Below, in pieces: positions 1,561 through 28,990 of a DNA stretch of 64,000 nucleotides (position 1 is the stretch's first letter; each line of letters starts with the position of its first letter). Made by a program: the position numbers and the translations under genes. The notes beneath the pieces were generated by a model. It was not told the DNA's origin, made no database searches, and saw nothing but the letters and a program-made list of their open reading frames with translations. Source of the DNA: Marsupella aquatica (lineage: Eukaryota > Plantae > Marchantiophyta); assembly GCA_973895155.1 (NCBI GenBank), contig OZ316896.1, positions 22,711,722-22,775,721 on the forward strand, written 5' to 3'.

Positions 1561-3093
1561 CAAGCCATGTTAGAGAATTTGCGTCAGTTGCCTGGCTATG
1601 GATGGCTATTGGGACAATTATGAGGCCTGCTGCAAAGCTGGAAATGTCACACCTTGCCCAAACTAAGAACAAACAAATTACACTAATTAGTGTAGTTCAG
1701 CCAACATCAATTCTTCAAGCTTCTAGTCGCGGAACTTGATTACCTTAACACTTAGCTCCAGCGTTGTTGACTTTGACGTCGAGCTTCCTTATGATCTAGG
1801 CCCGAAACGGCCATCCAGGGAGGACTTAGCATGGGGAGACTTGTGGGTAATGGGACGTGGCACTGGTGAAGGCAACTGAAGGCGCTAAGCTGACACACAC
1901 TAGGTAATTAGACTAGCTAGTTGAGGGTTGGTCAGATCAAGGGGGAAAGGGCCGGGCTCAAGGTAGTCCGTCCGGACCCCGGACGGAATTTGAGTTCTAA
2001 GGGCTTGATTGAGAGCTCCTCTTGGGCCTAAGGCCAATGGAATTACTCCATGGTCAACAAACGTTTGGGGCACAAGCCCTGGGCCCTCACTCCGAGTAAA
2101 AGAAGTGAAACCCCTTGCAATCGGGACCTTTTCCGTCTTACCCCTTGCTATTTCTATTTTTCTATAAAAATTTCACTTGTTACCGGTAATAATTATAATT
2201 ATTAGTTTCAAATGAATTAAATCCAACCTTTGAGCGTTCACACGTTGTCCGGGTGACCGTGTTTTCTGGTAAGAGCATGTTGGCTCTTATGAAGTCAACC
2301 TTGCATGCTTATAAGTTCTACACTAAAACCAAAATGGTAACTCTAGTAAGAATGGTAGTGGGTATTAAGAAAAGTTCAGGTGAAACTAATATATTATTAA
2401 ACCCTACTTCCACTACAACACTACCCACACCTTTTGCGAACTTGAAAGCATCGCAAACAACAAAGGAAATCAAAAAACAAAACTCGCCTTTGCGAAGTAT
2501 CGCGCATCGCAATAGAATCGCAAACTGCGAAGCCCAAAGGTTCGCATCCGGTCTTTCGCAAGACCTTCGCAACGCCTTCGCAACTTGCGACACTAATAGA
2601 ATCGCAAAGGACTCACATTTAAGCAACTCCGTGGGCGTCGCGAGAGGCTTGCGATAATAATCAAGCAGTTAAATATTTGCAATCCCAGAAGTTTGGTAAT
2701 CGGTTTGCGATATTAAGTTAATGGTAGTTATGCCATGAACATGGCTTCGCATTTTTGTGAACGTATGTGGTTTGCATAATGTTTGCGATACCTTCAATAT
2801 GGTAAATATGCGAATTGGGTTGTTCGCATAGGTTTTGCAAGATGTCTTGAGGCTAGGGTTTAGATTTAGAGTTTTGAATTATGGTTGGGGTCTTGTCGTC
2901 CAACACGGAGAATGAGGTCTGAATCAAAATTGCTTTATAGAAAATTGATAGGTACACAAAAATTAGGGTTTCCTAAACCCTAAACCCTAGATGGGTGTCA
3001 TATGATAAGCTAGGTCCCTATAAGACTACCCATATCAAAACTATATACTACACTAAGTAAATGGGCATCCCATAGGCACTACATCACCAAGCT

Positions 3094-5070
3094 CTAGAAT
3101 GGGGTCCTCCTAGTCCTTGTCGCCGGCCTCTTCCCCTTGTCCCTCTTGTGATGATCCGGACGTGGCACAGGAGGTGGTGCTGGCTGCTCCTCCACATCTG
3201 GTTCCTCCTCATCCTCGTCCTCATCCTCTTCCTCCCCCTCCTGCTGGGAAACTCCTCCTACTAGTCCAGATCCACTACTCCCTCCTACCTTGGGCCCCTT
3301 TGTCGTGGTCACCTCATTGTTCTCATCGGTGCTGCTGGTATCACTGGCATCCTCATCATCCTGTTTGCACAGCACAACGCCAAATTGGTTTAGGTTTACG
3401 GAATGAAAAGATAAGTGGATTGGGTGGGAAAAAATGAAGGGGATACATGCACTTACAGTCGCCAACTCTGCGTCAACCAAGTCAAAGAGATGTTTGGCTC
3501 CATGCGCAGCTCCTATCTCCATCTCTTTTGCTGTTATCTTCCTGCGGTACCTCTTATACTACCACAACCAAACATTCCAAAACCAAAATAGATCGAGGTT
3601 AATATGCTATAAACCCAAGAAAAATGCATGGAGGTGCTAATAGGGTGCCCCCTAACACAAAACTGGGCTCAATAACCCTTAGCGGTTTTTTTAAAACATA
3701 ATACACACTTGCGAAACTCCCCACTTCGCAAATTCAAATAAATTGGCTGTTTACGAAGTAGTTTGCGAAGCGAGTTATTTTGCAATAGCTTCGCATTTAC
3801 AACTTTAAAAAATGCCATGATAGACTTTGTGAAACATTTGCGAAGCAACCCGCATCGCAAAAGCTTCGCAAACTCTGTTTTTAAAAAATTCCGAGAAATC
3901 TCTAAGGCACGCAATGTGTCAGGGTGACCTAAAGTACAAGGCAGGCCGTAAGAAAGAAACAAGAGGTATGCAGGGGGGGCATTGCAGGTTTGGATAGCAA
4001 TTGAAAGCAAGGAAACAGAAGCAGGGGAGGAGAGGAGAGGGCCCACTCACAAAGTGTGCTTTGAGGCCGGGAAGTCCACCTTGGCCCATCTTGTGCGTGG
4101 TCTTGGGCCGTTTGCTGACTCGCTCAGCTGCAAGGATGAATTTTTGGGGTGGTGCACCCACTTCATCCATAATGTGCTGCATGTGAGACACTTTCTCAGC
4201 CATTGCCTTGAGCTCTCGGTCGGACTTCCCGGCCTTCTGTGCCTTGGCTTCCATCTCCTTCCAGAAGAGAAGGTTCCTGGCAGCTCTCATCTGCACCTCC
4301 ACTTTGTAAAAGGCATTCCACACGTCCTCAGTGAATTGCAGTGGCCTCCTCACGTTTCTGTACTCCTCCAAGTTTGCCAGGTAGGCCCTTACCTTCTTCC
4401 TATCATGGTACCGTGCTTGAGACATTGAATTGGAAATTCTATCTGCAAGCCACTGTTCATCAATCCCTGCTCCATTTCGAAATGAATCTTTGATTTGACT
4501 CATTACTTTCTTCTGGTCTGCCTTGCTGAGTTTCCCCCACTCAACTCCTCGTGCAAAATTGGAGCGCACCATAAGCCTGATAGTACTCTTTGCCCCGGTG
4601 TAGGCCAGTTCAGTAGGAATGCCTTCGATCAAGGCAATCATAGGCAGCTTCTTCCTCTCTTCCTCCTTCTTTCGCTGCTCCTCCCGCTGTGCTCTTATCT
4701 CATCTCGTTCCTCTCTCCTCCTCTTCTTTTCTAGGGCAACAGGTGAGACTACTCCTGCCTTGGCCCTCTCCTCCTTCTTACGCTTCTTCTCTCTTGCCTT
4801 CTGTTGAGCTGCACTCCTTTGCTCCTCCTCCCTTGCAATGTTCCCTGCATCTACTCCCGTTTGCAAGGCTTGCCCAAGGATTGCACTCAAAGAAGCAATC
4901 CCTGCTGGTGTAGTCAAATCTAAGTGGCTCAACTGTGCTGCATTGAGGTGCTCAGCCATCAAATCGGTCCATCGATTCCTCTCCTGCTCCCCATTGCCTT
5001 CATTCCCATTGCCACTCTCACTCACCCCTGCCCTATCACCTCCATTTGCTCCACTGGAATCCATAGCCAA
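3094..5070 (-). CDS. TnpA/Ptta-like (Transposase_24-like) accessory protein, ~462 aa; complement(join(3094..3360,3457..3558,4051..5070))
   Basis: Core W-x-K-L...F...W...P-x-x-F-T-E-D-V-W...H-K-M-G-Q-G-G resembles the plant Ptta/En/Spm ORF2 family; two GT-AG introns with GTGAGT and GTAAGT donors join three exons in frame; acidic C-terminal tail. Confidence 0.65.
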
Positions 5071-5529
5071 GCCACCCCCCGAGCGCGCGCGAGCTCCCTT
5101 CTCCCTCCCTATGCTTGAAATTTGTCAAATGCCGCTGAGTACGCCGTGGCCGAGTGCAAAAGTTCAAGCAGGAAAGACTTGCGAAGCAACCCGTTTCGCA
5201 AGTTGCGATTCTTCTTGTTTCACATATAGTTTCTCAATTTTGCGAAACCATTGCGACGTGAAAGGCTTCGCAACACCTTCGCTCTCTCGCAGAAATGCTC
5301 TCGAGCTCTGTTTTTCTGAAGGTCTTGCGAAAGCAGTAGCTTCGCAAACTTCAATTCTAATTTGTGATGGTATTTGCGAAGGAAGCGGCTTCGCAAGACA
5401 TTGGCAACTCGTCCTGGGGGAATGTTGGTTTCATTTGAAAGGGTTTTTTTCAAAGGTGAAGTGGACCCCTCTATACTCATATTTGGAATGCTTTTTGGCC
5501 ATGTTTTGGGTGTTAGATAATAGTTGAAG

Positions 5530-6363: not shown

Positions 6364-7516
6364 ATGTCTTCATCTTCTGAAATCTCCACCACAGACTCGT
6401 CCTCCTCTGATGAAGATACACCACCTCCACCTCAACATCACACGACCGCACCTCCTCCTCGCGGTCCACCCCGTCAACTTTGTGAATGTTCTAGATGTGT
6501 GGGTCAGGTTTCCCAAAAATCTTACATATGTGCCCAACATATTGAGAGATATGGGCGTTGTGGACGTCATACGGCAGGGGCTTCTTCATCTCATATGGTA
6601 AGTGTTATGCCTTAGTTTTCCTACCCTATTCCCATTACTCAATGGTTGAAGGTTTGCAATTTCACACCTACTTTTGTTTGTTTTGGTTTCGGTGGAATAG
6701 GTATCCAATAGGCCTAGACCTGCGGCACAAGCACCCTATGTCCCATCACAAGGTGTTCTAGATGCTATAGGCAATGCATTCTCAAAAGCCTTGGGTCTAG
6801 CGGCAAGGCCCACCAGTCCTAGGGAAGTTGGGGTTGAGGCTATTGTCCCAAGAGGGAGAAAGCGTTCCAAGAGGCGGGCCCGAGGGGATACTGATTTGTA
6901 CAAGGCAGTGGTTACGGGTTGGTGGGGTGATTGTGAGTTCACTGGCAGATGTGTCCCTATCATCAAGGACTGGGCTCCTGAGACTCTTGGTTTGCCACAA
7001 CAGCTTTCCTACGGTGCGGAGGTAGAGGTTTGGGGTAGACGTTGGGTTATCAAACCTTCCACACTTGGGGATAGACATGGCTATGGAGTTTTTGCCTGTG
7101 AGGACATCATTGTGGACGCCGAGAGTGGTAGAGGTGGACGCGGCCGAGAGGGGCCTACTTTGTTTCCTTATGGTGGACCCATCTACAAGAGAAGACATTG
7201 GAACATGATCCTTGCACAACACCCTGAGTGGAAGACTTATGCATTGGACATGGATACTTTTGATGGAAACACTAGAAGGTATAGTGAGCAGCGTGTCATA
7301 GATGGGGACCCCATACGGACTGGGAATATTGCTGGTTTCATAAACAGTACTGTGGGGACTTGCCCTAAGCGTAGGCAAAATTGTGAGTGGGTTTTCATTG
7401 AGGGTCCTCCGCCAGCACCTTATGGCCAGACATATCATCATGACCATTGCCTAGTTGTAGCAACAAGGACCATTAACTCAGGGGATGAGTTATTTACTCA
7501 CTATGAGTGGGATTAG
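6364..7516 (+). CDS. SET-domain protein (putative lysine methyltransferase) with N-terminal CxCxxC...H motif, 349 aa; join(6364..6597,6701..7516)
   Basis: SET motifs in order: KPSTL..GYGVFA, FPYGG, IDG..GNIAGFINS..QNC, VVATRTINSGDELFTHY; GTAAGT donor at 6598 and T-rich AG acceptor at 6699-6700 are both phase 0; no stops. Confidence 0.8.
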
Positions 7517-7712
7517 GGTTAAGTTAAGGGTCATAGGTGGTATGTTGCATATCAAAGGGCACTACATATGGCCTTTGGCCACATTTTGTATTTGCACCAC
7601 AACCAATATTATTTCATTTTTGCACACCCCTAGCCCATTTTTGTGTGTGTTCTCTTTGCATATAACTTTCAATTGTTTGCTTTGTTTTTAGAATGTGTGA
7701 CCCTCTCCAAAT

Positions 7713-10700
7713 ATGTTACCACGGAGATTGAGAGCAACATATCGAGAAATGGGTATGCCAGAAGAAGGACATGGATCAGAGTCACACTCCTCATCAAGTG
7801 CTAGTGGAAGCAGTAACCCTGATGAAGAGGTACCTCGGACGGATGAACAAGTAACTGATGACCAGGATAGAGCCATGGATGACTTTATGGTTGATTGGTT
7901 TGGTGCCGACAACCTTGGTGATGACCTTCCCAATGAAGGGCAGGTGCCCCCCAATGATCCACGCCCAAGGCATACCCCTGAGGGACAACGCCAATGGGAA
8001 GAAGTAGAGGAACATGCCCGAACACCTATCTATGAGGGTGCTCGTTTGAGTCGTCTTTCAGCCATCTTGGGGTTGATGAACCTACAGGCCAAACACAAGG
8101 CAAGCAATGCCTTGTTATCTGATATGTTTGCACTTTGCCATGACCTTATGTTGCCCACTGAGAATGTGTCGCCAGCAACTTGGAAGGAGGCAAAGAGTGT
8201 TCTCTCATCTATTGGCATGGAATATCATATTGTTCATGCATGTGTGAATGATTGCATGTTATTTCATGGGGCCAATGCAAACATGACACAATGTACAACA
8301 TGTGATGAGCCTCGCTATGACCCCAACATGCTAACAAAGAAGGTGCCAAGGAAGGCTGTTCGTTGGTTTCCCATCATTCCTTGGTTGTTGCACATGTATC
8401 GGTGTTCTGACTTGGCAGAGTTGATGGTATGGCATAAGACTCATCGATCAGAGTCTGGTGTCATGCGGTTGCCAGTTGACTCCCCTGCTCACAAACATAT
8501 TGAGGCAACATGGCCAGACTTTGCACATGATCCTCGCCATGTGAGGCTAGGATTGGCATCTGATGGAGTTAGCCCTCATTCACTTGGAGGAAAGGGGCAA
8601 CCTACATCAGTTTGGCCTGTGGTTGTCATGAATTATAACCTCCCACCATGGCTATCCATGAAGAAAGGGTTCCTTTTATTGTCTTTGATTATCCTAGGTC
8701 CAAAAAAGGTGAAGAACTTTGACACTTACTTGGCACTATTGGTTGGAGAACTTCAAAAATTATGGAATGGAGTGTGGGCATATGATGGCAGGAAAATTAC
8801 AGGAGGTTTTCCACGTGTCTTTCAATTGAGAGGGATCATTTGTTGGACAATGCATGACTATCCTGGTAAGATGACTTCCATGCCATTTGCAACCCTTCAA
8901 TAATGTGTAGTTCCTATTGATGTTTCTCATGTGACAACCCTAACATAAAGTTTGCATGGTTTGATTTCTTCTATGTAAGCAGGGTTTGGTTTTGTCTCTG
9001 GATTGCAAACTCAGGGGTACAAAGCTTGCTCTACTTGTGGCCCAAGCTTAGAGGACATGGCCTCATATTGTTCATGGATTAGAAAGATTGTTTATATTGG
9101 GCATACAAAGTTTCTTCCCATGGGGCATGAGATGAGGTTTGACCCACTTCTATTCTCCTCCTTTGACATGCCATTTGGTGATGAGCGTGAAATTCCTGAT
9201 GCAACAAGTTTTGCACATTGGAAGTCACTAGCTAATAGGGTGGCAGACCCAAATGATTCCTTCACCTTTGATAGGACAGGTTTGACCAGGTGGAGTATAC
9301 TAGCCACTTTGCCCTATTGGTCTGAGTTGAAGATCCACCATCTTTTAGACCCCATGCACATAGAGGGAAATGTGGGGAAGGCTTTGATAAAGCATTTTTA
9401 TGGGGAGAAGGACACTAATTTTAGGGAGGCATGCGAGGAGATGGAAATGCATCCAGATGTTTGGGTGACAATTGATCCTATCACAGGTGTGGAGAATCGT
9501 CCTTCTGCTCCTTGGGTGTTGAGTGTTGGCCAAAGACGTGAATTTCGGAACCGTATAGGAGAGATGCGGTTTCCTACAGGCTATGGTGCCAACCTTCGAA
9601 AAGCTTTTGGGATGGAGGACAATCACAAGTGGCCACGATATCTGAAGACACATGACTATCATCGCCTATTGCAGCATATATTGCCAGTGGCAATTATAGG
9701 TATAGGGAGTGAAGAAGTGCAAGATGCCATCTGGTCATTGGGTCGTTTGTTGAGATGGATATGCTCAAAGGAGATATATGTAGAAGAGATCCCTGGGATG
9801 GAGGTATTGGCAGCTGAGGTGGTATGCAAGTTGGAGAAAGCCCTTCCTCCTTCCTTCTTTGATTGTCAGGTTCATTTACTTGTGCATCTTGTGCGGGAGG
9901 TTGCCATTGCAGGTCCAGTGCATTGTAGATGGATGTATTGGCTTGAGCGTTACATGGCGGTGTTGAAGGCTTATGTACGTAACCGTGCACGGGTGGAGGG
10001 AAGCATAGCTACAGGATACTTGGCAGCAGAGAATATGTTTTATTGTAGTAACATCTTGGCCACCATTGATCCTACTTGTCCACGTACTTGGATGGAGGAA
10101 AGAGAAGAGGAGGAGGACCGTTTAACAGGTGCCACAAAAACACGCATGTTGACATCAACAGAGTGGTCACAGTTGACAACATTTATGTTGAGTAATAGTA
10201 ATATCATGGAGAAATGGAGAGAGTTTTATGAGAATGCCAAGAGAACAAGTCAAAGAGCAAGAATTTTTCCTAAGATGCATGAGTATATGAAGCAAAAGTT
10301 GCTTGAGTTGGATGACATGGTGACACAAGGAGGAGATGTGTCCCACTTTCCTACCATCACAGATGACGTTCGGACCATTGTTCATGGCCCTTTGAGAGTG
10401 GTGACATCCAAGACGGCTATGTGGACACAAGGGAGACACTTCAGGTCCACTAGTACCTAACCTTTCTTCCTCTATTAATTCATGTAGACCTTATTTTGAT
10501 TAGTTATTTCTATTGTTTAAAAACTTTCTATTATCATTAATGACATCCATAACTGTAATGTTGGCTTCTATATTTATGCCATAGGCCATGTGGGTTTTGG
10601 CTATTTAGGGATGGGTGTCATATTTTGATGATTATTACATTAATGGTATCTTTTACAGTGTAATAAAAATTTGTGGGTTTTGTTAATTTTAGGGTTTCTT

Positions 10701-11182
10701 CCCTTGATGAGAAGAGGGGTCGTACTTTTGATTGTGGAGTTCAAGGGGAATTTTCTCAAGACTCCAGAAGCAGCCGCCATGACAGGAACATTGTTAGAGA
10801 TGTTGTGCCACACTATGGGAAGATAGAGGAGATCTTGGTGGTATCATATGACAACCATTCAAAGTTTGAGGAATATGTCTTCAAGTGCAAGTGGTTCAAA
10901 GTGAACCTTGTTGGTCAAAATTGCACTGTACTTCAAGATGAGAGTGGGTTTACACGGTTGAAGACAAGTGCCACTAGTGTTCAAGCATCTCATTGGCAAA
11001 CGTCAGAACCATTTGCTTTCCCATCACACTTGGAGCAATGTTTCTACATTCCATACCCCTTAGACACCGAGTGGTCAATTGTCATCACCTATGTGCCACG
11101 TTCTCGTTCCATTGTTTCTGAGAAGCCAGATGTTATTGTATCAGACCTAGATGACCTTGAGGCCGATGAGGACCAAGTGTGA
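7713..11182 (+). CDS. CACTA transposase (TnpD-like: Transposase_21, DUF4218 and DUF4216-like regions); join(7713..8865,8983..10444,10693..11182), 1034 aa
   Basis: Motifs HACVNDCMLF, LGLASDG, YNLPPW, TMHDYPG|FGFVSG..GYKAC, LDPMHIEGN, PPSFFD..VHLLVHL, GPVHCRWMY, YGKIEEI, FKCKWF; the spliced length of 3105 nt is a whole number of codons. Confidence 0.9.
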
Positions 11183-11640: not shown

Positions 11641-11739
11641 TTTTTAGTTTGCGAACAATTTGCGAAGCTCACAAACTCTCACCGGACTCGCAATTTATAT
11701 GAAGCTTCTCGTTTCTCAATATTTCCATACTACACTAAT

Positions 11740-12988
11740 TCTAGTTGTGATTATTGGATTGGGTAGTGAGGAACTTCGTGATGCCCTTTGGTCATTGGGC
11801 AAGCTTTTGAGATGGGTATGTCAGAAGGAGGTATAGGAGGATGAAACTGCTGCAATGGAGACATTTGGAGTAGAGGTTGTGTGCAAGTTGGAGAAGGCAC
11901 TCCCTCCCTCATTTTTTGATGGTCAGGTTCATTTTCTCATACATTTAGTGTGTGAGGTTGCAATTGCAGGCCCAGTGCATTGTCGATGGATGTATTGGGT
12001 AGACCGTTATATGGGAGTGATAAAATCGTATGTCTCTAATCGTGCTAGGGTGGAAGGTAGCATTGCAGAGCGTCATCTTGGAGCAGAGAGTATGTTTTAT
12101 TGTACAAACATAGTTGCCACACTAGATCCAAATGCTCCTAGGGGATGGATAGATGAGGCGGCACGAGAGGAGGACTACGAGGATGATAGACTCACTGGGG
12201 CATCAAAAGAGCATCTCTTAAGCTTAGCGAAGCGTTTGCAACTCACAACATTTATGTTGTACAACTCACCAGAGGTTGTAGGGGAGTGGACATCGTTTTA
12301 TGAGGAGGAGAAGCAAAATAGTCGACGACCACGGATATTTCCTAAGTTTCACCCATACATGAAGTCAAAGTTGTTAGAAGTGGATGCCTTGGTGGGTACA
12401 GGGGAGAGTGTATTGCATTATCCAGAGGTGACTGATAAGCTTCGTACCCTTGTTCATGGTCCACTACTTATAGTCACAACTTGGACTGCCATGTGGTCCA
12501 AGGGAAAACACTTTCGTGTGGAACGACTTGATGAGAAGAGGGCAGCTACACAAGATTGTGGGGTCATGGGTTGGTTCACCCAGGATTCACAGAGCAGCAC
12601 ATCGGACAGGAATCCCATTTGGTCCACTATCGCTCATTATGGAAAGATTGAGGAGATCCTAACTGTGAAGTACCATGCACATACTACTTTGGAGGAAGTG
12701 GTATTGAAGTGCAAATGGTTCAAGATGAATCTTGTGGGCCACAATCGTACATGTGAAGATGATGCATGCAGATTTACTCGGTTGAAGACAAGTGTTATCA
12801 GCTCAAATTAGAGGTCTTCAGATCCGATTGCATTCCCACATCACCTTGAGCAATGTTTTTATCTACCTTATCCGGATGACTCAAATTGGTCTATTGTGAT
12901 GCCATATATCCCTCGATCACGATCTATAGTCCAGGATAGACCCAACGTAGTTGTAGTGGAAGATGATGACATCCCCTCCACCACTTAG
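11740..12988 (+). pseudogene. 5'-truncated CACTA transposase of a sister family (family B)
   Basis: Homologous to 9680-11182 (IIGLGSEELRDALWSLG, PPSFFDGQVH, GPVHCRWMY, LEQCFYLPYP); in-frame TAG stops near 11834 and at 12809. Confidence 0.9.
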
Positions 12989-13159
12989 CTAGTAAGTAGC
13001 AACTATAGCTAGCCCCTACCATATTTGTGTTTATTTTCCCGACATTATATATTTCTCGGCACTATATTTGTTTCTCAATGTCCACTCTTGCATAAAACAT
13101 ATTCCATAAAGTATCTCTAATACTTCTCTCAAACCCACTCAACTAAGAACCTCAAGATA

Positions 13160-13712
13160 ACCAGTGTCCAATGGTCTATCCGATGAAACTTGCATCGGAT
13201 ATGCATCGAAGCACAAAAGGCTCAATCGCAGAAATTGTCCGATATCGCAACTATCGGAACACTCACATCCAATATTGGAAACATCGGACCCCTCGTCCAA
13301 TGTTCCAACAGATTGGTCCGATATTGACCGCTTCGGAAATGTTTCCGATTCTTTACCTTACGCAATTTATGTCCGTAGTATTCTATTACGAAAACCATGT
13401 CCGTTGGAATAAACATTGGACAATATCTGATGTTGTCTATAACGCACATTGTATCTGATAACCTGAAGATCGGACCCTTGACAATACTTTTCCGGTCAAA
13501 TGTCCGATTCATTTAGTTTCGGAAACGTTCCGATGTAACCGATATGGGATATTGGTTGCGTTAGGGAACACATCGGACTAACTAAATCCGATGCGATGCA
13601 CATCGGACATTACGAAGATTTTTGTATCGGACAACGTCCGATTCTCTCGGGTTCGGACATGACAAAATAGTCGCATTTTGAGTATCGGAAAGTCGTCAAA
13701 AATGTACTAGTG
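13160..13712 (+). mobile_element. Right terminus of family-B CACTA with a TCCGAT/ATCGGA subterminal motif field
   Basis: Ends ...GTCAAAAATGTACTAGTG at 13712 (reverse complement CACTAGTACAT); dense TCCGA/TCGGA motifs. Confidence 0.85.
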
Positions 13713-14109: not shown

Positions 14110-16101
14110 CACTAGTACATATTTAGCTGATTTCTGATGCTCAATTTTTGCAAACAATTGGCATCCGATTCTTTTAGAATCAGAAATTCCCATTATCACA
14201 AAATGGCAATATGCCATACTCTCGGCTTCGGATATCTTCATTTCCGATGTAATTAGCAACGGAAACTTTCCGATGCAGTAAGAAATGGATCATATCCGTT
14301 ACAAAATACATTGGATCCCCTAACAAACAATTTTGATTGATGTGTCCGATGTTTTTTGTAACGGAAATGATGTGCGTTTCAATATTGATCGGAAAAGTTC
14401 CGTAGTTGATAAGAACGGATATGATATTCGATTGTGGTAAAATGGCAAAGTCCGATGTTGAGAGAATGGGAAAGTCCGATGCTGAGAGAATGGGAAAGTC
14501 CGATGCTAGGAGAATGGGAAAGTCCGATGCTAGTAGAATGGGAAAGTCCGATGCTGGGAGAATGGGAAATTTTCATTTTGGCAAAACGACAAATTCCTAT
14601 TGTGTTAGATGGGGCATGTAGTTGCACCAACATACTCTTCCTAGAAAAGAGGATACAATCATTCTTGCATGTTGAATGACTTCAAACTTGAGGCAAAGGG
14701 ACTTAATTGAATGTTGTTATTGCCTCCTTCCAAGACCCCAAAATATTGTTCCCTTTTGGCAATATTTGCTCAACATGCAAAATCAAAAATTTATCATCTA
14801 AAAGGAGATTGCTTGTCCCATGTAGTCTTTGTTGCAAGTCCAACAACAACATAGTTGATGAAAGATGAGACAATTGGGAGCTGCCCTTGACGCCAAGGCT
14901 TTGGAAGGACCAAAATATTAATCTTCCATAACTAATAAAATATAATGATCTCATGTCAAGTCGGATGGAGGAGGGCTTTACTATTCACAAATGACCCCAA
15001 ATTTCTATTGATTGTTCCAAGGGAATGTAAGAGGGTAATCGTAATTATAGATCACTCGATGCAAACATGATGCAATATCATGATAGAGCAAAATTGGGAT
15101 TTATTAGTCTAATGCCACACTTTTGTGGCATAATCACTACATTGCCACTCTTTTTCTTGTATTTATCAGTCTGCCACTCGTTTGAGTCATCGGTTAAGAA
15201 AAGTAACTCAGGTTAACTACCTAAGATCCGATGTTTGAGATTTCTTTTGGTCTTCCCATTGGACGGTCGTCGCTTCCCTCACAATTACATTTTGAACCCT
15301 CAGTATAGTTTGCAGAGGGGTGGGTCGGCTAATCCATTTCTCCTCCCGTCCATTTCTCTGTCACCATAGTCAAGGCGCACTGGCTGCGTCTTTGCTCCAC
15401 CTTTGCCACTATCGTTGCGTCCTCATTTCCCCGGCCCGGGCTGTGTTGTTGTTGACCCTAGCTGCCTCTAGCTTGGCTGGGGCTGCATCGCTGCATGTTG
15501 CTTGTCGGCCTCTCCCGACTCTGCCCAACTTAGGTCCATTTAGGGTTTAGGGTTTAGGGATCTTAATAAATTTAGAAGTGTATAAAATCCCTAAACACTC
15601 CAAGTCAAACAATAAAAGTGTTAAGCTTGCATGTACATTGTGAGGGATAAGAACCACAAAGTTAAGCTCATGTTGGAGGAATAGCAATTGGGATGGGTGA
15701 CCACTTAGTTGAGGAATGAAGAGTTGAAATATCAAAGGAGATGGGCACCTCGCTCATGGTTGCAAAATGAAAGTAAATATACAAAGGAAGAGATGGGTGA
15801 CCTGAGCACCCCGCGTCTGCTCCAATGTGTATCCCATTTTCATTGTTTTAAACTTTCCCATTCTCCCAACATCGGACTTTCCCATTCTCCCAACATCGGA
15901 CTTTCCCATTCTCTTAGCATCGGACTTTCTCATTCTTTCAGCATCGGACTTTCCGATATAAGTCCGATTGTCGATATCCGATACTTTTATCATGGCATGT
16001 TACGATGCCGGCAGAATCGGATGTATGGTTTTTTCATATTTTGTTTTACAAAGACGTCCGATGTGGAGAGAATCGGAAAAAGGAGGTAAAATGTACTAGT
16101 G
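14110..16101 (-). mobile_element. Complete non-autonomous CACTA (family B deletion derivative)
   Basis: TIRs CACTAGTACAT/ATGTACTAGTG; 3-bp TSD TGT (14107-14109, 16102-16104); 24-bp subterminal tandem repeats in inverted orientation at 14441-14570 and 15852-15958; decayed transposase N-terminus on the minus strand at ~14600-14900 (QLSHLSS..LQQR..SWKEA..CKNDCILF). Confidence 0.92.
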
Positions 16102-17020: not shown

Positions 17021-18681
17021 AGTAATTTGTTAGAGGACCCCTTGGTTATGTAAGCTTGTTTTATTGAACTATTTGGAATTATGAAGAGTTGCACATTAAA
17101 ATAGATAGATAAGAAGACAAAGTTTAAATGGAGGATTCTAAATGAAGTGAATTTTAAAGGTAGTTAGGACAATTTCATTGAAGACAAATAGGAGTACATT
17201 CATGGTAATGCCGATGGAGGGTAACTCTCCATGCAAATCTTTTCCCTAAGTAATCACTAAGTTTGTTGACTGAATTATCACAATTTACTTTGCACACTTT
17301 TTGGAGGTATTTGCTTGATGGACTTCCACAATGAAAAGTGTTAGTGGATGGGATTCTTGAGTGATCTGGACCATGATTAACCTCAATAGACCTTAACTCA
17401 ACGTACTCAAAACCTGATGGGTTGATTGAGGGGAAAAGTTTGGTTTGGGTTCTATCAAACAAATCTTTTGCACTTTTTCAGTAGATCTGTTCTTTTCTGC
17501 ATACCTGGCAGACAAATAATATGTATACTCGTGACTGAGCTTTAAAAACACATCACCCTTAAAAAGCTAAGGGTTAGCTATGCTACCATTAAAAGTAATT
17601 TTCCCCTAAATTTAGTTTCCATTTGAAGTACTTTTTTTCCTGAAACCGGTAAAGAAAGTGGCAAAGTAGGTGAGAAATGTGAGTGGAATGCTGGAAAAAT
17701 AAATGGCCAGTGGTGATTTAAGTATTCACTCAGGGTACCGGGTAAGCCCATTTCCTGGATTGGATAGGATGATGGGCTGTAATCCACTTGATAGCTTGTG
17801 CTGGAGAAACACTCCAAGGCATGAATTCACCAGAATTATTAAAAACATTAATCAGTTGACCAGAATGCTCCCCGTTCTGGAGAAAGTATCCTAGGCATCA
17901 ATTGACCAGAATGTTTCCTGACATGGCCTACTGAATTAAATTAGTCATTTCCACATTGGACGTGCACGCGAAGAGAGCATCCCCAACAACTCGTCACCGA
18001 GATGGATTTCTCGACTTGGGAACATCGCAAGGTCAAGGTGGAGCTCCAAGAGCCGGCTCTCCACATCGCAACCATTCGAGCTAAAAAGGTATCTCCAAAA
18101 CTTCGCGTCAGTACATGGAAGATGAACCGAATTGTTGTAATTGTGTATCTCGTAAGAACACTACAGAACAGCTTAGGAAGATGCCTGTCCTTCCGGACAA
18201 GTGTTCACTCAATTCACACTAAAAGCACAACACACAGGTTCACTAGTACCACCTCGAGTGCAACTATACTTCCAAGACTCCTGTAATTTACTTGGGAATG
18301 ATCCATTCACGATCATCTATTTCTGAAGAGAATGCATTGTTTTGTCTAGTCTGCGTTCTTGGACTAATTCTCAGGGTTTCCTTCTTCAGGGTAGTCTAAT
18401 TTTATTAAGTATGTCACTTCCGGCAATGAATATCAAGACTTCATCGAAATATAGTTTCCTGCCGTTACTGATTGAGTCCTTTCATCATGCACTCGGCATT
18501 GAACAAAGAACATACTGATTTATGAATTGGGTGTCCAATTGATTCGATGAAGCGATGAAGTGTACGTTGGAAGAAAGCGCAGGAGCTACGCACATACCTG
18601 AGGGTGGAGATCGACCGTCTGTCTTCACCAAGTTAGGAGCAAGGCTTCCAGACACTCTCACTCTCTTGGACATCCTTTAAG

Positions 18682-20202
18682 ATGGCGATAACGATGGCAA
18701 CTGCCATAATCGTGGGCTTCATTTCCTTGTTGTTGCTGTTCTGGAGGAGCATCTTGCTGCGACCATCACTGAGATTGCCTCCTGGGCCACGACCACTGCC
18801 CATCGTGGGCAATTTGCTGATGATGAGGAAGTATCCATCAACCGCGGACTTCGCCAACGAGCTGAGACGCAAGTACGGTCCGATAGTAACTCTATGGATC
18901 TTCTCCACACCAATGGTTATCATCTCCGAGCCCAAGGTCATTCAGGAAGCGATGATCACGCACGGCAGCGTCTTCATGGAAAGAGCTCAGCTCAAGTCAA
19001 GGAAACTCATTCTGCATGATTACAGAGGCGTCACTTTTTCTCACGGTGAGCGACATAGATTCCTCCGCAAGATATTGGTCACCGAGGTGTTGAGCAACAA
19101 GAGAGTGGCGGGATTCAGACCCATCCGCGAGCAAGAGATAGGCATCCTGGTCGACAATTTGAAGAAGCAGGCTCTCGGTAAAGATGATAACAAGGGGCCG
19201 GGACTTGTCCCTAATTTTCGTGCATTGATCCGTTTGACCGTCTCCAACTTCTTAGTAGGAATTCTCTTCGGGAGGAGATTGACTTCAGAGGAGTATGTCG
19301 ACCTGGATGAGGAAATGATCTTGCGCTTCCAACTAGCGACTGGGAAGCCTCGGGACTTCATTCCCTGGCTGGCCTGGCTGCCGGACAAGAAAGGCATCGA
19401 GGTCCAGCGGAAATCGCTGAGGAGAATTTCTCGGATCTTAGAACCGCTCATCGGGGAGAGGAGGCAACTCCTAAAATTAGGGGAGACACATCATCAAGCC
19501 CCATACGTAGACACTCTATTGGAGCTGCGAAATGGGAATATCAAGAGCCCAGTCGAGATCACTGATGCAGATATTGAGTTGCTATCAATCGAACTTCTCA
19601 CTGCAGGAACCGATACCACTGCACTGAACTTGGAATATAGCATTGCAAATCTCATCAACAATCCGGAGATGCAAGAGAAGTTGGCCCGGGAGATTTCTGC
19701 CGTTGTAGGTGAGAGAGTGGTGAACGAGGGCGACATACCTCACCTGCCCTTCTTGCAAGCAGTGGTCAAAGAGGCTTTGAGAAGACATAGCCCGGCAAGA
19801 TTGACACCACCCCGACGAACTTCGTCAGCTACCAAAGTTGCCGGCTATGACATACCAGTGAATACAATGGTTCAGCAGCATCTGGAAGCTGTGTCCCTGA
19901 ACCCTCAAATCTGGGAGAACCCTCTCGAGTTCAGGCCTGAGCGCCATCTCAACAGGCCTCTCGACCTCACTGGCTCTACCGAAATCACCATGATCCCGTT
20001 TGGGGTGGGTCGTCGAATATGCCCAGCCATAAATATCGGACTTTTGCATGCAGAATTGATTTTAGCTCGGCTGATTCAAACATTCGAGTGGAAATCTGCC
20101 ACCCCAGGCGAGCTTCTGGATGTCACCCCTGGTGGTGAGTTCACGAGTCCCATGAAGTATCCGCTTGTGGCATCCATACAGGAGCGTTTGAAGGTGTCTT
20201 GA
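18682..20202 (+). CDS. Cytochrome P450, clan 71, CYP77/CYP89-like, intronless, 506 aa
   Basis: N-terminal TM helix, LPPGPRPLP hinge, AGTDTT I-helix, EALR (ExxR), PERH, heme motif FGVGRRICPA; the DLTGS.EITMIPFG context resembles CYP77/89. Confidence 0.93.
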   Translation: MAITMATAIIVGFISLLLLFWRSILLRPSLRLPPGPRPLPIVGNLLMMRKYPSTADFANELRRKYGPIVTLWIFSTPMVIISEPKVIQEAMITHGSVFMERAQLKSRKLILHDYRGVTFSHGERHRFLRKILVTEVLSNKRVAGFRPIREQEIGILVDNLKKQALGKDDNKGPGLVPNFRALIRLTVSNFLVGILFGRRLTSEEYVDLDEEMILRFQLATGKPRDFIPWLAWLPDKKGIEVQRKSLRRISRILEPLIGERRQLLKLGETHHQAPYVDTLLELRNGNIKSPVEITDADIELLSIELLTAGTDTTALNLEYSIANLINNPEMQEKLAREISAVVGERVVNEGDIPHLPFLQAVVKEALRRHSPARLTPPRRTSSATKVAGYDIPVNTMVQQHLEAVSLNPQIWENPLEFRPERHLNRPLDLTGSTEITMIPFGVGRRICPAINIGLLHAELILARLIQTFEWKSATPGELLDVTPGGEFTSPMKYPLVASIQERLKVS

Positions 20203-22112: not shown

Positions 22113-25100
22113 TGTTAGATATTGCTCTAGTCTTGTGACTCATGAGCTAACCACAGTTAGTCTAACTCGGGTTAGGACTTAGCTAATGTTAGCGGTAGTG
22201 CTATTGTGCATATAGCCAGGGCTGATGCCAGACCCTGGAGGAACTTAGGCTCATTGTTACGGAGCTAGTTGAGAGATAGGGAGAGCTTGTGCTGTGGATG
22301 CTTGGTATGGCCGGTCGGCCTAGAGTGCAGTAAAGCTCTTGTGTGTTCCCGTGGATGTAGCCTCATGTGGAGGTGAACCACGTATCTCTCTGTGTCGACT
22401 ATTGTGCGTTGGATGGTTCTTGGGCTTGCCGTTGCAAATGTCGTCTATGCTCAACAAGTGGTATCAGAGCATGCCTGGGAGGTGACGAGGTTTTATCGTG
22501 ACAGGTTTTTCCAGCGTTCATTGTCGATGGGACATTCGGAGTTTCGTCGCATGAAACTCGAATGTGTGTGGTTGAGCGGATAGGTTAGTGAGAGGGCTTT
22601 CTAACGGTGGTTAGAACTCGCTGATCGGTATCCGTGGTGCGGAGGAATTGAAGTTTGCGTCGTTCAGGGTTTATTCGTGTTCGACGGTATTTTTGGGGGA
22701 AAAACCTGAGTTCGCTTTTTTCAACGGTGTGAGTTGTGCGGTGCGGGAGGGATCACACATTACAGCTTAAGTTGAAGGTTGAAGCGAGCTGGTCGTTTTG
22801 GTAGCTGGATTGCTGTCGAGTTGTTACCGAGTGCGACGTGACGAGTGAAGGAGGCGTTCAGGTTTTTTCACAAGCTATGAAGCTTGTTCACATCTGAACC
22901 GGGTTTCTTTTCGTGACGTCCGACTCGGTGGAAGAAACGCGAAGTGCTACAGCTCAACGGTTTAATCGCGGCGAGGCGGTTGTTTTGAGCCCGGGATTGG
23001 CACTTGACGCGGAGTGAAGGCGATGCGACGGAAGTTTGGTCTCTGCTGAGGTTGAAGACTGTGCCGGTGAAATTTGGCCACATTCACCGTCGGCGGCATT
23101 CACTTTTCTCGTTGGAAACAGCGGCTTTTCAAGTGAGTTTTACATTCATTTTTTTCCATGGGAGCTTTTTTGCTTTAAGGGGGGTTTTATTGGGCCCTTG
23201 TGTGTGTACCCACCCCGGCCCCGTGTCTTCGTTTTCACGGCCCCCCCTCCTCCCCGCACCACGTTTAACGTCGGGGTACGCAGCGCCGGCCGGCGCGCGC
23301 CCCGGCCATCCCTGCCCCGCTCGCCCTTTTCCCCGTCCAGGCCCGACGTCCCTGCCTCCGCGAAACGCCGGCTCGCGCCCTCACGGCCCTTTCCACCCTT
23401 GGGCACTTTGCGAATACGCGGCTGCATACACAGCCGCTCGGGTACGCGCCCTGCCATACGCCCTTCGTACCCCGGCCATAATACTTGGTATTTTTGGGTC
23501 GAAAAGGGATTTGCACCCCCTTTAGGGCGTTTCTTATAGCTGTTTTTTACTCCCGGGCCCTGCCTCAACGCCCTGTACACCCCCTGGCCCGCCTCGCGTC
23601 GCCTATACGCGGATGCGCCTTTTTTATACTGGTATTTTTTCAGGTTAAGGGGCTTAGCACCCCTTTAGGGCCCCTTTTTATGCCATTTTTTCCTCTCTTT
23701 TGGTTGTCCCTTGTGCCAGGACCTGCCGCCCTCCGTTTTAACCGCTCTGACAGGGGGAACGGCCCCCTGTGAGACCTGCTGTACTGTGCGGGAATATTCC
23801 CAAAAAACAGAGAGCTGTTTTTTGGCCGTCCAACAAAGATTCTGTCCGCCAAACGGTAACTTTTTTGGTTCTTTTTCGGTGAGGACGTTGCCACTGGAGT
23901 TAGCATCGCGGCGCACCGATCACATCGCGATTCCGACGACGGGTTATACTGGGTATTTTGGTTATTCTCCGAGGTGGTCACAACGGGGGAGTTTCCCAAG
24001 GTTTTACCCACCTCGACCGAAATTTGAATAACTTTTCCGTCAAATTTTGATTTTGATTTTGACTTTCAGTATTTGACTCCTAGCTTCGTGGGCTACGCGG
24101 TGGTGTTGAATTTTGAGTTTTATGAGAAATTTCAAAAAACGACATTTTTTCGTGATTGTTTCATATGAGTGACTCGGAGGATACTGGAAGAATTGGCGTC
24201 GGTGGAGCTTCAGGATCGCGACGGTTAGACGGAGAGTCTGAGGAGGAGCTGCTACCATTTGAGGAAGAACTAGTGACACCGGTACGATCACCGGTGCGAC
24301 GTGCAGTGGAGGAAGCTGTGTTACTACCAGAGCTATCGGTAGTAGGGAAGAAGAGGGAGATGGCTAGATTTGGAGGAGTGAAGTTTGAGGTGGAGAAGTA
24401 CGATGGTCGTACTGATTACTTGTTGTGGGAGAAGCAAGTGAAGGGTGTCCTTCGGGCCATGGGATTAGCTCATCTGCTTTCTTCGCGAGAGCAGTATGAT
24501 GGAGAGGAGGAGATTTCTGTAAAGCAGTGGAGACAGGAGCAGGTGATTGCTATCAATGCAGTGATGCTATATCTCAAGCCGCACATCATCAAGCAGCTGG
24601 ATGATTATGCGGATTGCACGTCACTGTTCAAGGCTCTAAGAGAGAAGTACTATCGGGAAGATGCGTCAGACCGGTTGTACAAGAAGTCTCTCTTGATGAG
24701 CCTCAGGCTCAAGGAAGGGAGCAAGATGCAGGATCACCTGGATGAGTTTGACAGTCTAGCGGTGGATCTGTCAAATCTGGGAAAAGGAGTTGAAGATGAG
24801 GATAAGGCCTTGCTTCTGCTAAGCTCCTTACCGCCGTCATATCAGGGCTTGAAATAGGTGCTCTTGTACAGAGATCTGAAGTCCATTTCGTATAATGAGG
24901 TGGTAAGCTCTTTACTGTCTGATGATGCTCAGAAGAAGCTGGGTCAATCACAGACAGCATCTTCTTTTGGCACTGCGCTCAATGTGAACAGGGGAAGAGC
25001 AACGCAGCGCACGAATGGGCAGAACAAGTTTAGATCTACATCACGGGGGAGATCTAAATCCAAAGGAAAATCGCAAGAGAGGAAGCCTCTTGCATGTTGG

Positions 25101-28100
25101 AATTGTGGCAAGCCAGGCCACATGAAAAGGGATTGTCGAGTAAAGGTCCCTACTACCTCTGCTAATGCAGCATCGAGCTTGCATGAGGTAGATTTACTCG
25201 ATGATGATGACATATTGTGATGTCAAGGTTATGCTCTCAACGTAGTGTCAAATCCAGGTAGTGATGATTGGATTCTAGATAGTGCATGTACTTTTCACAT
25301 TTGCTCTAGGATAGATTGTTTCAGTTCTTACACGGTTTCCAACGGGTCAGTGTTGATGGGAAATGGAATCCCATGTCAAGTTGTTGGACTTGGATCTGTA
25401 AGATTTCAGATGTTTGATGGTGTTGTGAGAACGTTGAGGAATGTGAGACATATTCCCAGCATGATGAAAAATCTCATTTCACTTGGAGTTTTAGAAGCAA
25501 ATGGCCATCAGTGGAGCTCTGCTAATGGTGTCCTTCAGGTTTCAACTGGTACTAAAGTTGTATTGAAGGGAAAGAGACATAGCAATCTGTACGTTTTGGA
25601 GGGCAGTGTAGTTTGTGATGAAGCCAATGTAACCTTATCTCATGAGGAGACGGCCCGGCTGTGGCACTTCCGTTTGGGCCACATGAGTGAAAAAGGTTTG
25701 GTTATTCTTCAGAAGAAAGGATTACTTTCTAATTTGCAATCTTGTAAATTGGAATTTTGTGAGCACTGTGTGCTAGGGAAGCACCATAGAAAACCCTTCG
25801 GAGTTGGAACTCACACCAGCAAGGAGGTACTTGAGTATGTACATAGTGATGTGTGGGGTCCAGCCCCTACTCCCTCACATTCTGGACGGTTATACTATGT
25901 CACGTTCATAGACGATTACTCAAGGTATGTGTGGATATACTTTCTACATAGTAAGTCTGATATTTTTGCCACTTTTAAGGAGTGGAAAGCCCAAGTTGAG
26001 AATCAGACTGGTAATAAGGTGAAATATCTTTGATCGGATAACGGCGGTGAATACAGTTCCAGGGAATTTGGAACGTATTGTAAGGAGCAGGGGATCACCC
26101 GCCATCTCACAACAACCTATACTCCTCAACAGAATGGTGTTTCTGAGAGACTCAACCGAACACTATTGGACCGCTCGAGGAGTATGTTGAGTCAATCATG
26201 CTTACCACATGAGTTTTGGGCTGAAGTTGTCAACACTACAGCTTATCTGGTAAATTTTTCTCCATCCAGTTCTATTGGATTCAAGACGCCATTTGAAATG
26301 AGGTACGGGCGTCCAGCAGATTACTCACATCTGAGGATTTTTGGATGTGATGCTTATGTGCTTACACCTTCCCAGCTTCGATCCAAGCTGGAGTCCAAGT
26401 CGAAGAAGTGCATTTTCCTTGGCTATCAGAAAAGTGTTAAGGGTTATAGGTTATGGGATCCAGTAACCTGTAAACTAATTGTCAGTAGAGATGTGTCCTT
26501 TAATGAATCCAGATCATCAAAGGAGGGGGAGAGTTCTCAGGACTCTCATACTGACAAGGGGAAATCTCTCATCCCGGACCGGGTTGAGGGGGAGATTAGT
26601 CATGATGCAGTTCATGACAGGAGAGATGGAGAAGCTTCGGGCTTGGAGCTGATTCCTGTGATGGAACAAGAGGAGCAGATTGTTGCTGGGGTACCTCAAA
26701 TTCAACCAGCAGCAGCAGCAGATCAGCCTGAGTCATCTACTAGAAGAACTTCCAGTCGTTCTACTAGAGCTCCTACCAGGTATGGTCAATGGGCAGACTC
26801 ATCTAAGCTAGATGATATTGACATTGCACTTGATGAAGATGACATGGCTTTGATTTTGGAAGAAGGAGAGCCTTCTTCGTACAGTGAGGCTTGTGCTTCA
26901 GAACAGAAGCATGAGTGGAATGCAGCAATGCAGAGAGAGTTGCAATCTTTGAGTGACAACAAGACTTGGGAGCTAGTGGAGCTTCCAAGAGGTCAGCAAG
27001 TGGTGGACAGCAAGTGGATTTACAAGTTGAAGGACAGTCCTTCAGAGGGTGGAGATAAGATCTACAAGGCACGGCTTGTTGCCAAGGGATTCACTCAGGA
27101 GAAAGGAGTGGATTACAATAAGGTTTTTTCACCGGTGGCTAAGTATTCCACAATTCGGATCTTGTGTCAACTTGTTGTGTTTTTTGGTCTGGTGATGGAT
27201 CAGATGGATGTTGTTACTGCTTTTCTCTATGGTAACTTGGAAGAGTTGATCTTCATGAGACAGCCACTAGGCTTTATGAAGAAGGGCCAAGAGAACTTAG
27301 TTTGCAGATTGCTCAAGTCCTTGTATGGATTGAAGCAGTCTTCCAGATAGTGCAACAAGCGGTTTGATGATTTCATGTTTGCTCAAGGTTTTACAAGGAT
27401 GGTATATGATCCTTGTGTGTATACGAAATCAGTCAAGAATGATGTATTTGGTTTCATCATTCTGGTGATCTATGTGGATGACATGCTGATTGTGGCTAAA
27501 GATCAATCTGAGGTTGACAGTCTCAAGGCAAAATTGAGTGTTGAATTCAGGATGAAGGATCTTGGTAAGGCCAAGAGGATCTTAGGAATGGAGATTTTTA
27601 GGAACTCTGAGACTAGACAGTTGTGCTTGAGTCAAGGCCAGTATGCGAGGAAAGTACTTGCACGATTCAACATGGAGAACTGTAAGCCAGTGAGTATTCC
27701 TTTAGCTTCACATTTCAAGTTATCATCGGCTTTCTCTCCTACGGATGCTGTGGAGAAAGGTCTGATGGCTAAGATTCCTTATGAGAAGGCAGTATGCAGT
27801 CTGATGTATTTGATAACTTGTACTAGGCCTGACTTGGCCCTAGCGATGGGCAAGGTTAGCAGATTCATGTCAAATCCAGGGAAGGTACACTGGGAAGCTG
27901 TGAAGTGGATTCTCAGGTATGTGAAGGGTACACAGGACTATGGATTACTATTTGATAACAGATCAAATAGAACGTTAGTTGGCTATGTAGATTCTGACTA
28001 TGGAGGGTGTCTAGATACAAGGAGGTCTACAACTGGGTTTGTATACACTCTTGGAGGAGGATGTATCAGTTGGAAATCTACCTTGCAGAAGTGCATTTCT

Positions 28101-28990
28101 CAATCTACTATAGAAGCAGAGTATGTTGCAGCAGCAGAAGCAGCAAAGGAAGCAATTTGGTTGGACAAGTTGATCGCGGAGATGGGTTTAGAGCATGGCA
28201 AAATGACTCTAAACTGTGATAGTCAGAGTGCTCTTCACTTGGCTGCTAACCAGGTGATGGATAGTAGGGTGAAGCACATTGATATCAGATACCATTTTAT
28301 CAGGCAAGCAGTGTCTGATAAAACTTTTGAGCTAGTCAAGATTGATGGAAAGCTCAATCCCGCCGATGCCTTTACCAAAGTGATTCATTTGGAGAGTTTC
28401 TCAAGACACCGTGCTACTTTGCAGGTTTTGCAGTTGTAATGCAAGTAGAGTTATTTAGCAATGTGTGACTATTTGTATATGGATTATTCATTCCTGTTTG
28501 GCTACGGCTTAGTTCTAGTTAACCCTTAGTTAACCCTTGTGGTTTTTAGGGGGAGACCTGGTTTGGTGATTGTCTAGAACTTCCCGTTGAGGATTCCATA
28601 TGGTAGCATTTAGTCTAGTCCCCAAGACAAGAGTCAAGGGGGAGTTTGTTAGATATTGCTCTAGTCTTGTGACTCATGAGCTAACCATAGTTAGTCTAAC
28701 TCGGGTTAGGACTTAGCTAATGTTAGCGGTAGTGCTATTGTGCATATAGCCAGGGCTGATGCCAGACCCTGGAGGAACTTAGGCTCATTGTTACGGAGCT
28801 AGTTGAGAGATAGGGAGAGCTTGTGCTGTGGATGCTTGGTATGGCCGGTCGGCCTAGAGTGCAGTAAAGCTCTTGTGTGTTCCCGTGGACGTAACCTCAT
28901 GTGGAGGTGAACCACGTATCTCTCTGTGTCGACTATTGTGCGTTGGATGGTTCTTGGGCTTGCCGTTGCGAATGTCGTCTATGCTCAACA
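22113..28990 (+). mobile_element. Full-length Ty1/copia LTR retrotransposon
   Basis: 344-bp LTRs at 22113-22456 and 28647-28990 (TG..CA, 4 mismatches by eye); TSD AGGTC; PBS TGGTATCAGAGC (tRNA-iMet) at 22459-22470; PPT AAGGGGGAG at ~28636-28644. Confidence 0.97.
24165..28439 (+). pseudogene. Copia gag-pol (gag, zinc knuckle, protease, integrase, RT, RNase H) in one frame with four in-frame stops
   Basis: CWNCGKPGHMKRDC, WILDSAC, HxRLGH..C..C, HSDVWGP, YKARLVAKG, YVDDML, KHIDIRYHF; stops at 24855, 25218, 26031, 27348. Confidence 0.93.

Follow-up and report, generated by a model that had tools for sequence, protein, structure and literature searches.

The window analysed here, a 64,000-nt stretch of the Marsupella aquatica contig OZ316896.1 (positions 22,711,722 to 22,775,721), harbors a CACTA/EnSpm DNA transposon, and the sequence places a SET-domain exon inside its CACTA left end. 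In window coordinates, the element has the following features:

2411..2420, plus strand: left terminal inverted repeat, CACTACAACA, read from the sequence as the start of the CACTA element
2434..2607, no strand assigned: left subterminal cluster, three exact copies of TTGCGA-N11-TCGCAA, from an exact-repeat count
3094..5064, minus strand: divergent accessory gene, main exon in the open reading frame 3919-5124 with the first Met at 5064; later exons predicted
3709..3860, no strand assigned: two copies of TTGCGA-N11-TCGCAA inside a predicted intron of the accessory gene; corresponding sites occur in loci L007, L030 and L042
5179..5396, no strand assigned: four copies of TTGCGA-N11-TCGCAA in the divergent promoter region; corresponding sites occur in L007, L016, L030, L039 and L042
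6364..6597, plus strand: coding exon 1 (78 aa) with a phase-0 donor GTAAGT, likely common to the SET and transposase products
6598..6700, plus strand: intron of 103 nt, GT..AG, phase 0, seen in the sequence, with the same donor and acceptor in related loci
6701..7516, plus strand: SET terminal exon (271 aa and stop), recognized by Pfam SET, an AlphaFold2 model and structural matches
7690..7691, plus strand: conserved AG acceptor, in phase 0 relative to the transposase frame and 21 nt upstream of the first Met, in 22 of 25 loci
7692..11182, plus strand: TnpD-type transposase, exons 7692-8865, 8983-10444 and 10693-11182
11649..11693, no strand assigned: beginning of the right subterminal repeats, with three half-sites at 11649-11688

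The related loci used for comparison are 42 metagenome loci derived from 204 pattern matches; they are peat-moss-like by sequence and not independent of one another. Six contigs of sequencing run X1 represent the empty site and depart from the window exactly behind position 2410. Moreover, the left terminus of five loci (L007, L008, L030, L040 and L042) is identical to that of the window element, and the flanks of the left ends differ, corresponding to at least four distinct insertion sites. An earlier, sequence-only reading of this DNA had already placed the SET gene inside a CACTA element, and the left end at 2411 together with the empty-site contigs bears this out. The right terminal inverted repeat of the window copy is missing, the element being cut off near 11735, where a second CACTA family takes over whose transposase is 62% identical to the first. 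A complete element of about 10 kb is present in L030 (6069-15961), with inverted ends and the 3-bp target site duplication (TSD) ACA on both sides; its right end is GTAGTAATG, with one change, and that of L021 is GTAGTAGTG. Four features characteristic of CACTA/EnSpm elements are found: inverted CACTA termini and a 3-bp TSD (both in L030), a TnpD transposase and subterminal repeat clusters. Read depth in the run X1 mapping is flat across the element, a profile that, having no single-copy baseline, gives no copy-number figure.

Several other repeats populate the window. A short insertion at 1233-1515 has the same CACTACAACA left end, TTGCGA repeats and TTG on both flanks; it is without a right terminal inverted repeat and sits inside a high-depth repeat. 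The sequence replacing the right end of the SET element (11735-13712) is the 3′ part of the second CACTA family, with ATCGGA/TCCGAT repeats and the right end ATGTACTAGTG. A non-autonomous CACTA element of this second family occupies 14110-16101, with CACTAGTACAT ends, TGT on both sides and 24-nt subterminal tandem repeats. Farther along, we noted by eye a pair of similar cytochrome P450-like genes (18637-20202 and 35906-37455, the second split over two frames) and a Copia-type retrotransposon gag-pol in one frame with a few stops (24156-28439). Long tandem repeats at 62484-63923 give rise to repetitive minus-strand open frames.

The window contains 11 exact copies of the palindromic motif TTGCGA-N11-TCGCAA, where 100 shuffles give an expectation of 0. 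Nine copies fall within the SET element and two within the small insertion at 1233-1515. Among spacings of 5 to 19 nt, the half-site pairs use only 11, both in the 11 window copies and in the 23 copies found in related loci. The half-site TCGCAA(A) coincides with the core of CCVTCGCAAA, the target of Arabidopsis TnpA-Spm1, and eight of the nine TCGCAAA cores in the window are in the SET element or in the 1233 insertion; the full 10-mer CCVTCGCAAA is absent from the window. This common core suggests that the divergently transcribed gene encodes a TnpA-type binder. The gene is found upstream of SET in nine of the 14 related loci that have at least 2 kb of upstream sequence, and its dN/dS is 0.27-0.31. 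Its main reading frame (3919-5124) has no match in Pfam or PDB and none to a TnpA profile, and pairwise comparison with a Transposase_24-bearing protein also gave no match. The sequence-only reading had placed SET between a TnpA-like gene and the transposase; the position stands (3919-5124 on the minus strand and 7701-11182 flank the SET gene), and the TnpA label found no support in the Pfam and PDB searches. We therefore refer to the product only as a putative TnpA-type DNA-binding protein.

The SET gene itself turned out to be organized differently from the uninterrupted reading frame first described. The frame opened by the ATG at 6364 is closed by a stop at 6615; a different frame (6701-7516) contains the SET motifs, and the 349-aa product requires the joining of two exons of 78 and 271 codons across the GT..AG intron 6598-6700. 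The donor GT of exon 1 is conserved, in phase 0, in all 15 related loci that reach this site, and the gene models P0001 (Calypogeia) and P0003 (Sphagnum) splice the same exon pair. Exon 1 starts with a Ser-rich and acidic stretch followed by a Cys/His knuckle, CxCxxC-x13-H-x3-G, which resembles the transposase-associated domain and is kept in distant members of the family. The terminal exon consists of a basic linker, a family-specific N-terminal extension and the SET domain (about 7007-7513).

The transposase gene (scanned over 7701-11182) exceeds the Pfam cut-offs for Transposase_21, DUF4218 and DUF4216. Its frame from the conserved acceptor to the first Met is open in 20 of 25 loci, and the seven codons in between (N-I/V-R-P-S) are conserved, with changes at third positions. 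The SET stop keeps its position in 27 of 28 loci, and beyond residue 190 of the SET core the loci show no phase-0 donor that is conserved. The phase-0 donor of exon 1, the phase-0 acceptor, the conserved codons ahead of the Met and the conserved SET stop all point to SET being an alternative terminal exon: the element probably produces two splice forms, exon 1 joined to SET or, with SET skipped, exon 1 joined to the transposase. This arrangement, judged from splice signals, is the most likely one, and had been missed in the sequence-only reading. A full in-frame SET-transposase fusion was also considered; it is unsupported by the donor phases, and the fused gene models in the databases are computer models. 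A search for SET fusions among longer proteins, in itself weak evidence, found none.

The nature of exon 1 bears on the same question. Pfam Transpos_assoc (PF13963) does not match it. A profile built from five transposase-associated domains aligns the exon 1 Cys/His motif in register; in this test four of ten N-termini scored above all 300 shuffles, and the score of the window's own N-terminus was reached by eight of the 300. Five of 11 long relatives carry such an N-terminal Cys/His domain, which the transposase would lose were SET a free-standing accessory gene and the transposase a separate gene starting at Met 7713, with the same functions. The latter arrangement draws support from the Met itself, present in 25 of 25 loci, and from Arabidopsis EN/SPM2, 5, 6 and 9, which are described as having split TnpA/TnpD genes (PMC13547354). 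It would also leave the transposase of the window copy open: a TGA at 7698-7700, the third codon after the acceptor and the sole internal stop when the transposase exons are read singly, replaces what is Arg in most relatives. Nevertheless, the SET stop and the conserved acceptor lie only 175 nt apart, and seven codons ahead of the Met are conserved in frame, both of which speak against separate genes. We regard separate genes as unlikely, though not negligible, and favor the alternative terminal exon. With exon 1 used, the window transposase contains a stop, and the right end of the element is missing as well; the window copy is probably non-autonomous.

Proteins related to the SET product are numerous. 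A protein search returned 42 matches with E values up to 0.001; those with a name come from Calypogeia fissa (72%), from several species of Sphagnum (55-83%) and from Riccia sorocarpa (39%); one Sphagnum cluster alone holds 360 members. A profile search of 1.84 billion sequences gave 129 representatives (50% clustering). Among the 30 of these that were looked up, the named ones belong to Riccia, Calypogeia and, in one distant case, Ginkgo, the others being without taxon; one of the weakest matches is an unrelated S-layer protein. The Ginkgo protein (Gb_21150, P0167; E 7e-4) is a distant family member in a seed plant. Apart from the S-layer protein and three models with Transposase_21, a domain scan of 48 family members found SET only. 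No relative was present among 30 pattern matches in viral contigs or among 42 in prokaryotic genomes. A quick tree search covering 88 of 123 aligned rows shows several SET subfamilies within Riccia and within Calypogeia, with hosts mixed. Several subfamilies per host are what would be expected of transposon families.

The transposase follows SET in 25 of the 29 loci with at least 280 nt of downstream sequence, and the four remaining loci break off inside SET, so that every locus with a complete SET end (25 of 25, all peat-moss-like metagenome contigs) carries it. The gene order, with the divergent accessory gene first, then SET and then the transposase, recurs in these contigs. Furthermore, gene models running from SET into Transposase_21 are found in Sphagnum jensenii (P0028) and, for Riccia, in two further SET subfamilies that form distinct clades (P0087/P0109; P0116), implying that the link between SET and the transposase predates the subfamily of the window.

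Comparison of the window with 30 loci over the SET core gave dN 0.18, dS 0.78 and a median dN/dS of 0.23; the ratio is 0.15 for exon 1 and 0.14-0.15 for the transposase. In matched loci, the catalytic part of SET has a dN/dS of 0.13-0.23 versus 0.09-0.17 for the transposase. By this measure of coding sequence, the SET lineage is under purifying selection. Among the related loci themselves, dN/dS is 0.83 and stops interrupt 15 of 42 SET cores, a pattern expected of the ordinary decay of inserted copies in a lineage that is still constrained. Such decay of many related copies is also what one would see if SET were a host gene fragment captured passively, as in Pack-CACTA elements, and had no role for the element. 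Yet the dN/dS of SET is near that of the transposase, the exon occupies the identical position in mosses and liverworts, several subfamilies coexist in one host, and the family extends to 129 representatives; of the 30 looked up, not one bears the name of a known host SET. Passive capture thus seems highly improbable. The proposal of an intact transposon-borne SET, distinct from Pack-type capture or a recent host copy, is upheld by the dN/dS of about 0.2 rather than near 1, the breadth of the family, the linkage to the transposase and the SET fold described below. Overall, we are confident that the element represents a SET-carrying CACTA/EnSpm lineage of bryophytes, found in both mosses and liverworts.

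For six loci (L001, L009, L013, L015, L030 and L033), dS against the window is lower in SET (6887-7513; 0.74-0.82) than in the transposase (1.06-1.58) of the same pairs. This may reflect either additional constraint on the SET exon or exchange of sequence among families. The dS values separating the window from the peat-moss-like loci (0.7-1.6), together with the mixing of hosts in the tree, would be compatible with horizontal transfer, which we do not put forward as a claim.

All four SET motifs occur in order within 6701-7516, as had been noticed initially, and the exon scores 27.6 bits with Pfam SET against a cut-off of 22.4. The AlphaFold2 model based on 123 sequences is of high confidence (pLDDT 91.7, pTM 0.87), in contrast to the one based on 30 close sequences (pLDDT 46). 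Foldseek returned 317 matches at E 0.001 or better, all of those listed being SET proteins, and the VIA-align matches listed are SET/PR folds, the top one with Z 12.0 and rmsd 2.6 over 124 residues. An Atlas search likewise led to SET clusters, the first of them streptophyte. Searching PDB with the single sequence of the SET product gave no match at E 10; a profile search produced a sole strong match, LegAS4 (E 3e-8), the next one being at 0.002.

The likeness to ATXR5/6 suggested by the sequence-only reading did not hold up. ATXR5/6 reach only E 0.31-0.37 in the profile search, ATXR5 ranks 32nd among the Foldseek matches listed, which are headed by LegAS4 followed by SET8 and MLL1, and its VIA-align Z is 9.8 versus 12.0 for Set1, 11.6 for both SET8 and SET7/9, 11.5 for PRC2 and 11.0 for LegAS4. 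The family is a clade of its own; in the absence of any special kinship to ATXR5/6, methylation of H3K27 cannot be inferred, and the tied top Z-scores name no substrate, so that the target lysine is not readable from the structure. ATXR5/6 carry a PHD finger; Pfam detects none in exon 1, exon 2 or the full-length relatives. Chlorovirus vSET, which is a homodimer, is not named among the structural matches listed by Foldseek and VIA-align, and this does not imply its exclusion.

Across the 123 aligned proteins, the catalytic motifs are largely retained. The two glycines of GxG are conserved in 102 of 109 and 106 of 110 sequences, the Asn of the NH motif in 106 of 117 and the terminal Tyr in 92 of 101, and the YxG position holds Tyr in 86 of 112 and Phe in 26. 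The canonical wording of the NH motif is RFxNHS, with His; here this His is replaced by Ser in 107 of 117 proteins, the window reading GFINS. The protein also ends early: the tail past the last Tyr has a median of five residues (six or fewer in 59 of 92), and the window product terminates as Y-E-W-D-stop, three residues past the Tyr and without a post-SET Cys cluster, just as first reported. In SET domains, the F/Y switch position bears on the multiplicity of methylation. The family has Thr, Ala, Cys, Val or Ile there, and such small residues lead us to predict that methylation, if it takes place, probably occurs more than once.

Methyltransferase activity is plausible on the basis of the model and these motifs; since the NH histidine and post-SET are absent, activity and substrate stay predictions. 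The NH His and post-SET aromatic residues are described as forming a lid over the cofactor in G9a, GLP and SUV39H2, and for G9a/GLP the terminal Tyr is reported to be essential (PMC2797608). The importance of lid residues in those enzymes, the family-wide change of His to Ser, the missing lid and the Phe found in a part of the YxG motifs would all suit a pseudo-enzyme, that is, a reader or decoy that binds a histone tail, or else a silencing protein of the host, without methyl transfer. On the other hand, conservation of GxG, the Asn and the terminal Tyr stands at 91-96% across very distant members, and LegAS4, the closest solved profile match, is likewise without the NH His (N-F in the alignment) and is reported to methylate H3K14 (bioRxiv 10.64898/2026.05.29.728679). 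A pseudo-enzyme is accordingly an improbable outcome, albeit one worth keeping in mind. An active enzyme might instead modify a non-histone protein, whether a silencing factor of the host or one of the element's own products, the transposase or the accessory protein. A single promoter likely drives both SET and the transposase, the SET protein has no chromatin-reader domain, and the near-equal Z-scores (12.0-11.0) of Set1, SET8, SET7/9, PRC2 and LegAS4 single out no histone-specific family. Still, most of the top structural matches are histone methyltransferases, and published transposon SETs are read as putative histone writers in the accessible accounts. We consider a non-histone target quite unlikely, and histone methylation remains the preferred reading.

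The splice signals, repeats and fold can be combined into a possible mechanism. One promoter would give rise to two mRNAs, exon 1 with SET and its stop or exon 1 with the transposase, much as En/Spm yields TnpA and TnpD. The divergent TnpA-type protein would bind its TTGCGA-N11-TCGCAA sites in dimeric form. Apart from the Cys/His knuckle of the shared exon 1, the SET isoform lacks a DNA-binding domain; it may be brought to the repeat clusters by the TnpA-type protein or by the transposition complex. There, SET might methylate a histone lysine and thereby oppose host silencing, which is the weakest step of the scheme. In general terms, we lean slightly toward a bryophyte CACTA/EnSpm element with a SET exon, likely spliced to transposase exon 1, whose predicted methyltransferase marks the element's copies and helps their activity. 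For the more specific role of SET as an anti-silencing enzyme, the chances appear evenly balanced. More tentative, and on balance doubtful, is the joint reading in which the fusion of transposase exon 1 with a bacterial/viral-type SET gives the element its own histone methyltransferase, delivered by the TnpA-type protein to the repeat clusters, where it would directly lay down a silencing-blocking mark, possibly on a lysine not methylated by the host, in mosses, liverworts and perhaps further (Ginkgo).

If true, an element-encoded writer of a histone mark would represent a strategy different from that of VANC and TnpA, plant transposon anti-silencing factors that are described as sequence-specific binders. 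For transposon SETs of algae and oomycetes, the accessible parts of the reports describe no tested function; the family sits in bryophytes, a group with standard model plants in which the function of a transposon SET can be tested. DNA transposons are reported to be preferred H3K27me3 targets across green plants (PMC11982613), and a self-encoded writer would bear on the origin of this bias. A small SET protein and a DNA binder of known motif would also make a compact epigenome-editing pair. A practical consequence concerns annotation: in Sphagnum and Riccia, these SET exons are entered as host genes for a 'SET domain-containing protein'.

The implied novelty of a SET gene in such an element was overstated, since SET genes have been published in Plavaka, HarbingerS, MuDR and Helentron elements. 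The nearest parallel is Plavaka, a member of the EnSpm/CACTA superfamily in red algae with a SET-bearing accessory gene, PAG2 (bioRxiv 10.1101/2025.02.11.637652). As far as the available text describes it, Plavaka shares with the bryophyte element the superfamily, a conserved SET accessory gene, inverted-repeat arrays and a putative chromatin role. It differs in that PAG2 combines SET with an N6-adenine methylase, in its three-gene cassette, its size of 17-19 kb and its Plavaka transposase. By description, the bryophyte element contrasts with it in having a TnpD-type transposase, a length of about 10 kb, SET alone, likely as an alternative exon, and land plants as hosts; an N6-adenine methylase fused to SET was not found in the 48 family members scanned. 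SET genes are also reported in HarbingerS and MuDR of Phytophthora (Kojima and Jurka 2014, cited in PMC12730594) and in proto-Helentron-Pi, where SET is described as Clr4-like (PMC4067079). These, too, are DNA transposons with a SET-domain reading frame, but as described they belong to other superfamilies and hosts, and the bryophyte SET is not close to any solved family.

With regard to gene organization, the closest counterparts are maize En/Spm and Arabidopsis EN/SPM3, reported to produce TnpA and TnpD by alternative splicing, while other families have split genes (PMC13547354). Arabidopsis TnpA-Spm1 is described as binding clustered CCVTCGCAAA motifs and reactivating the element via host demethylases (bioRxiv 10.64898/2026.08.24.746577). 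CACTA termini, the 3-bp TSD, TnpD domains, clustered motifs with the TCGCAAA core and, here predicted from splice signals, two products from one gene are common to these elements and ours. The second splice product is where they part: in En/Spm and EN/SPM3 it is the DNA-binding, demethylase-dependent TnpA, whereas in the bryophyte element it is a SET fold, with a separate gene, transcribed divergently, coding for the putative DNA binder. As for the SET domain, LegAS4/RomA and SETs of phaeoviruses and other giant viruses also have neither a Cys post-SET nor the NH His. This bacterial and viral likeness is apparent in LegAS4 being both the best PDB profile match and the first Foldseek match, and in BFVD matches at E 1e-7. 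However, identity to these proteins is only 20-27%, Z-scores tie with those of eukaryotic SETs, and the ankyrin domain of LegAS4 is absent from the bryophyte protein. In the literature covered, outside subscription journals and Repbase, we found no paper on a land-plant CACTA element with SET. Thus, the occurrence of SET domains in transposons was already known; new are the host range, the type of transposase, the SET family and the likely shared-exon design.
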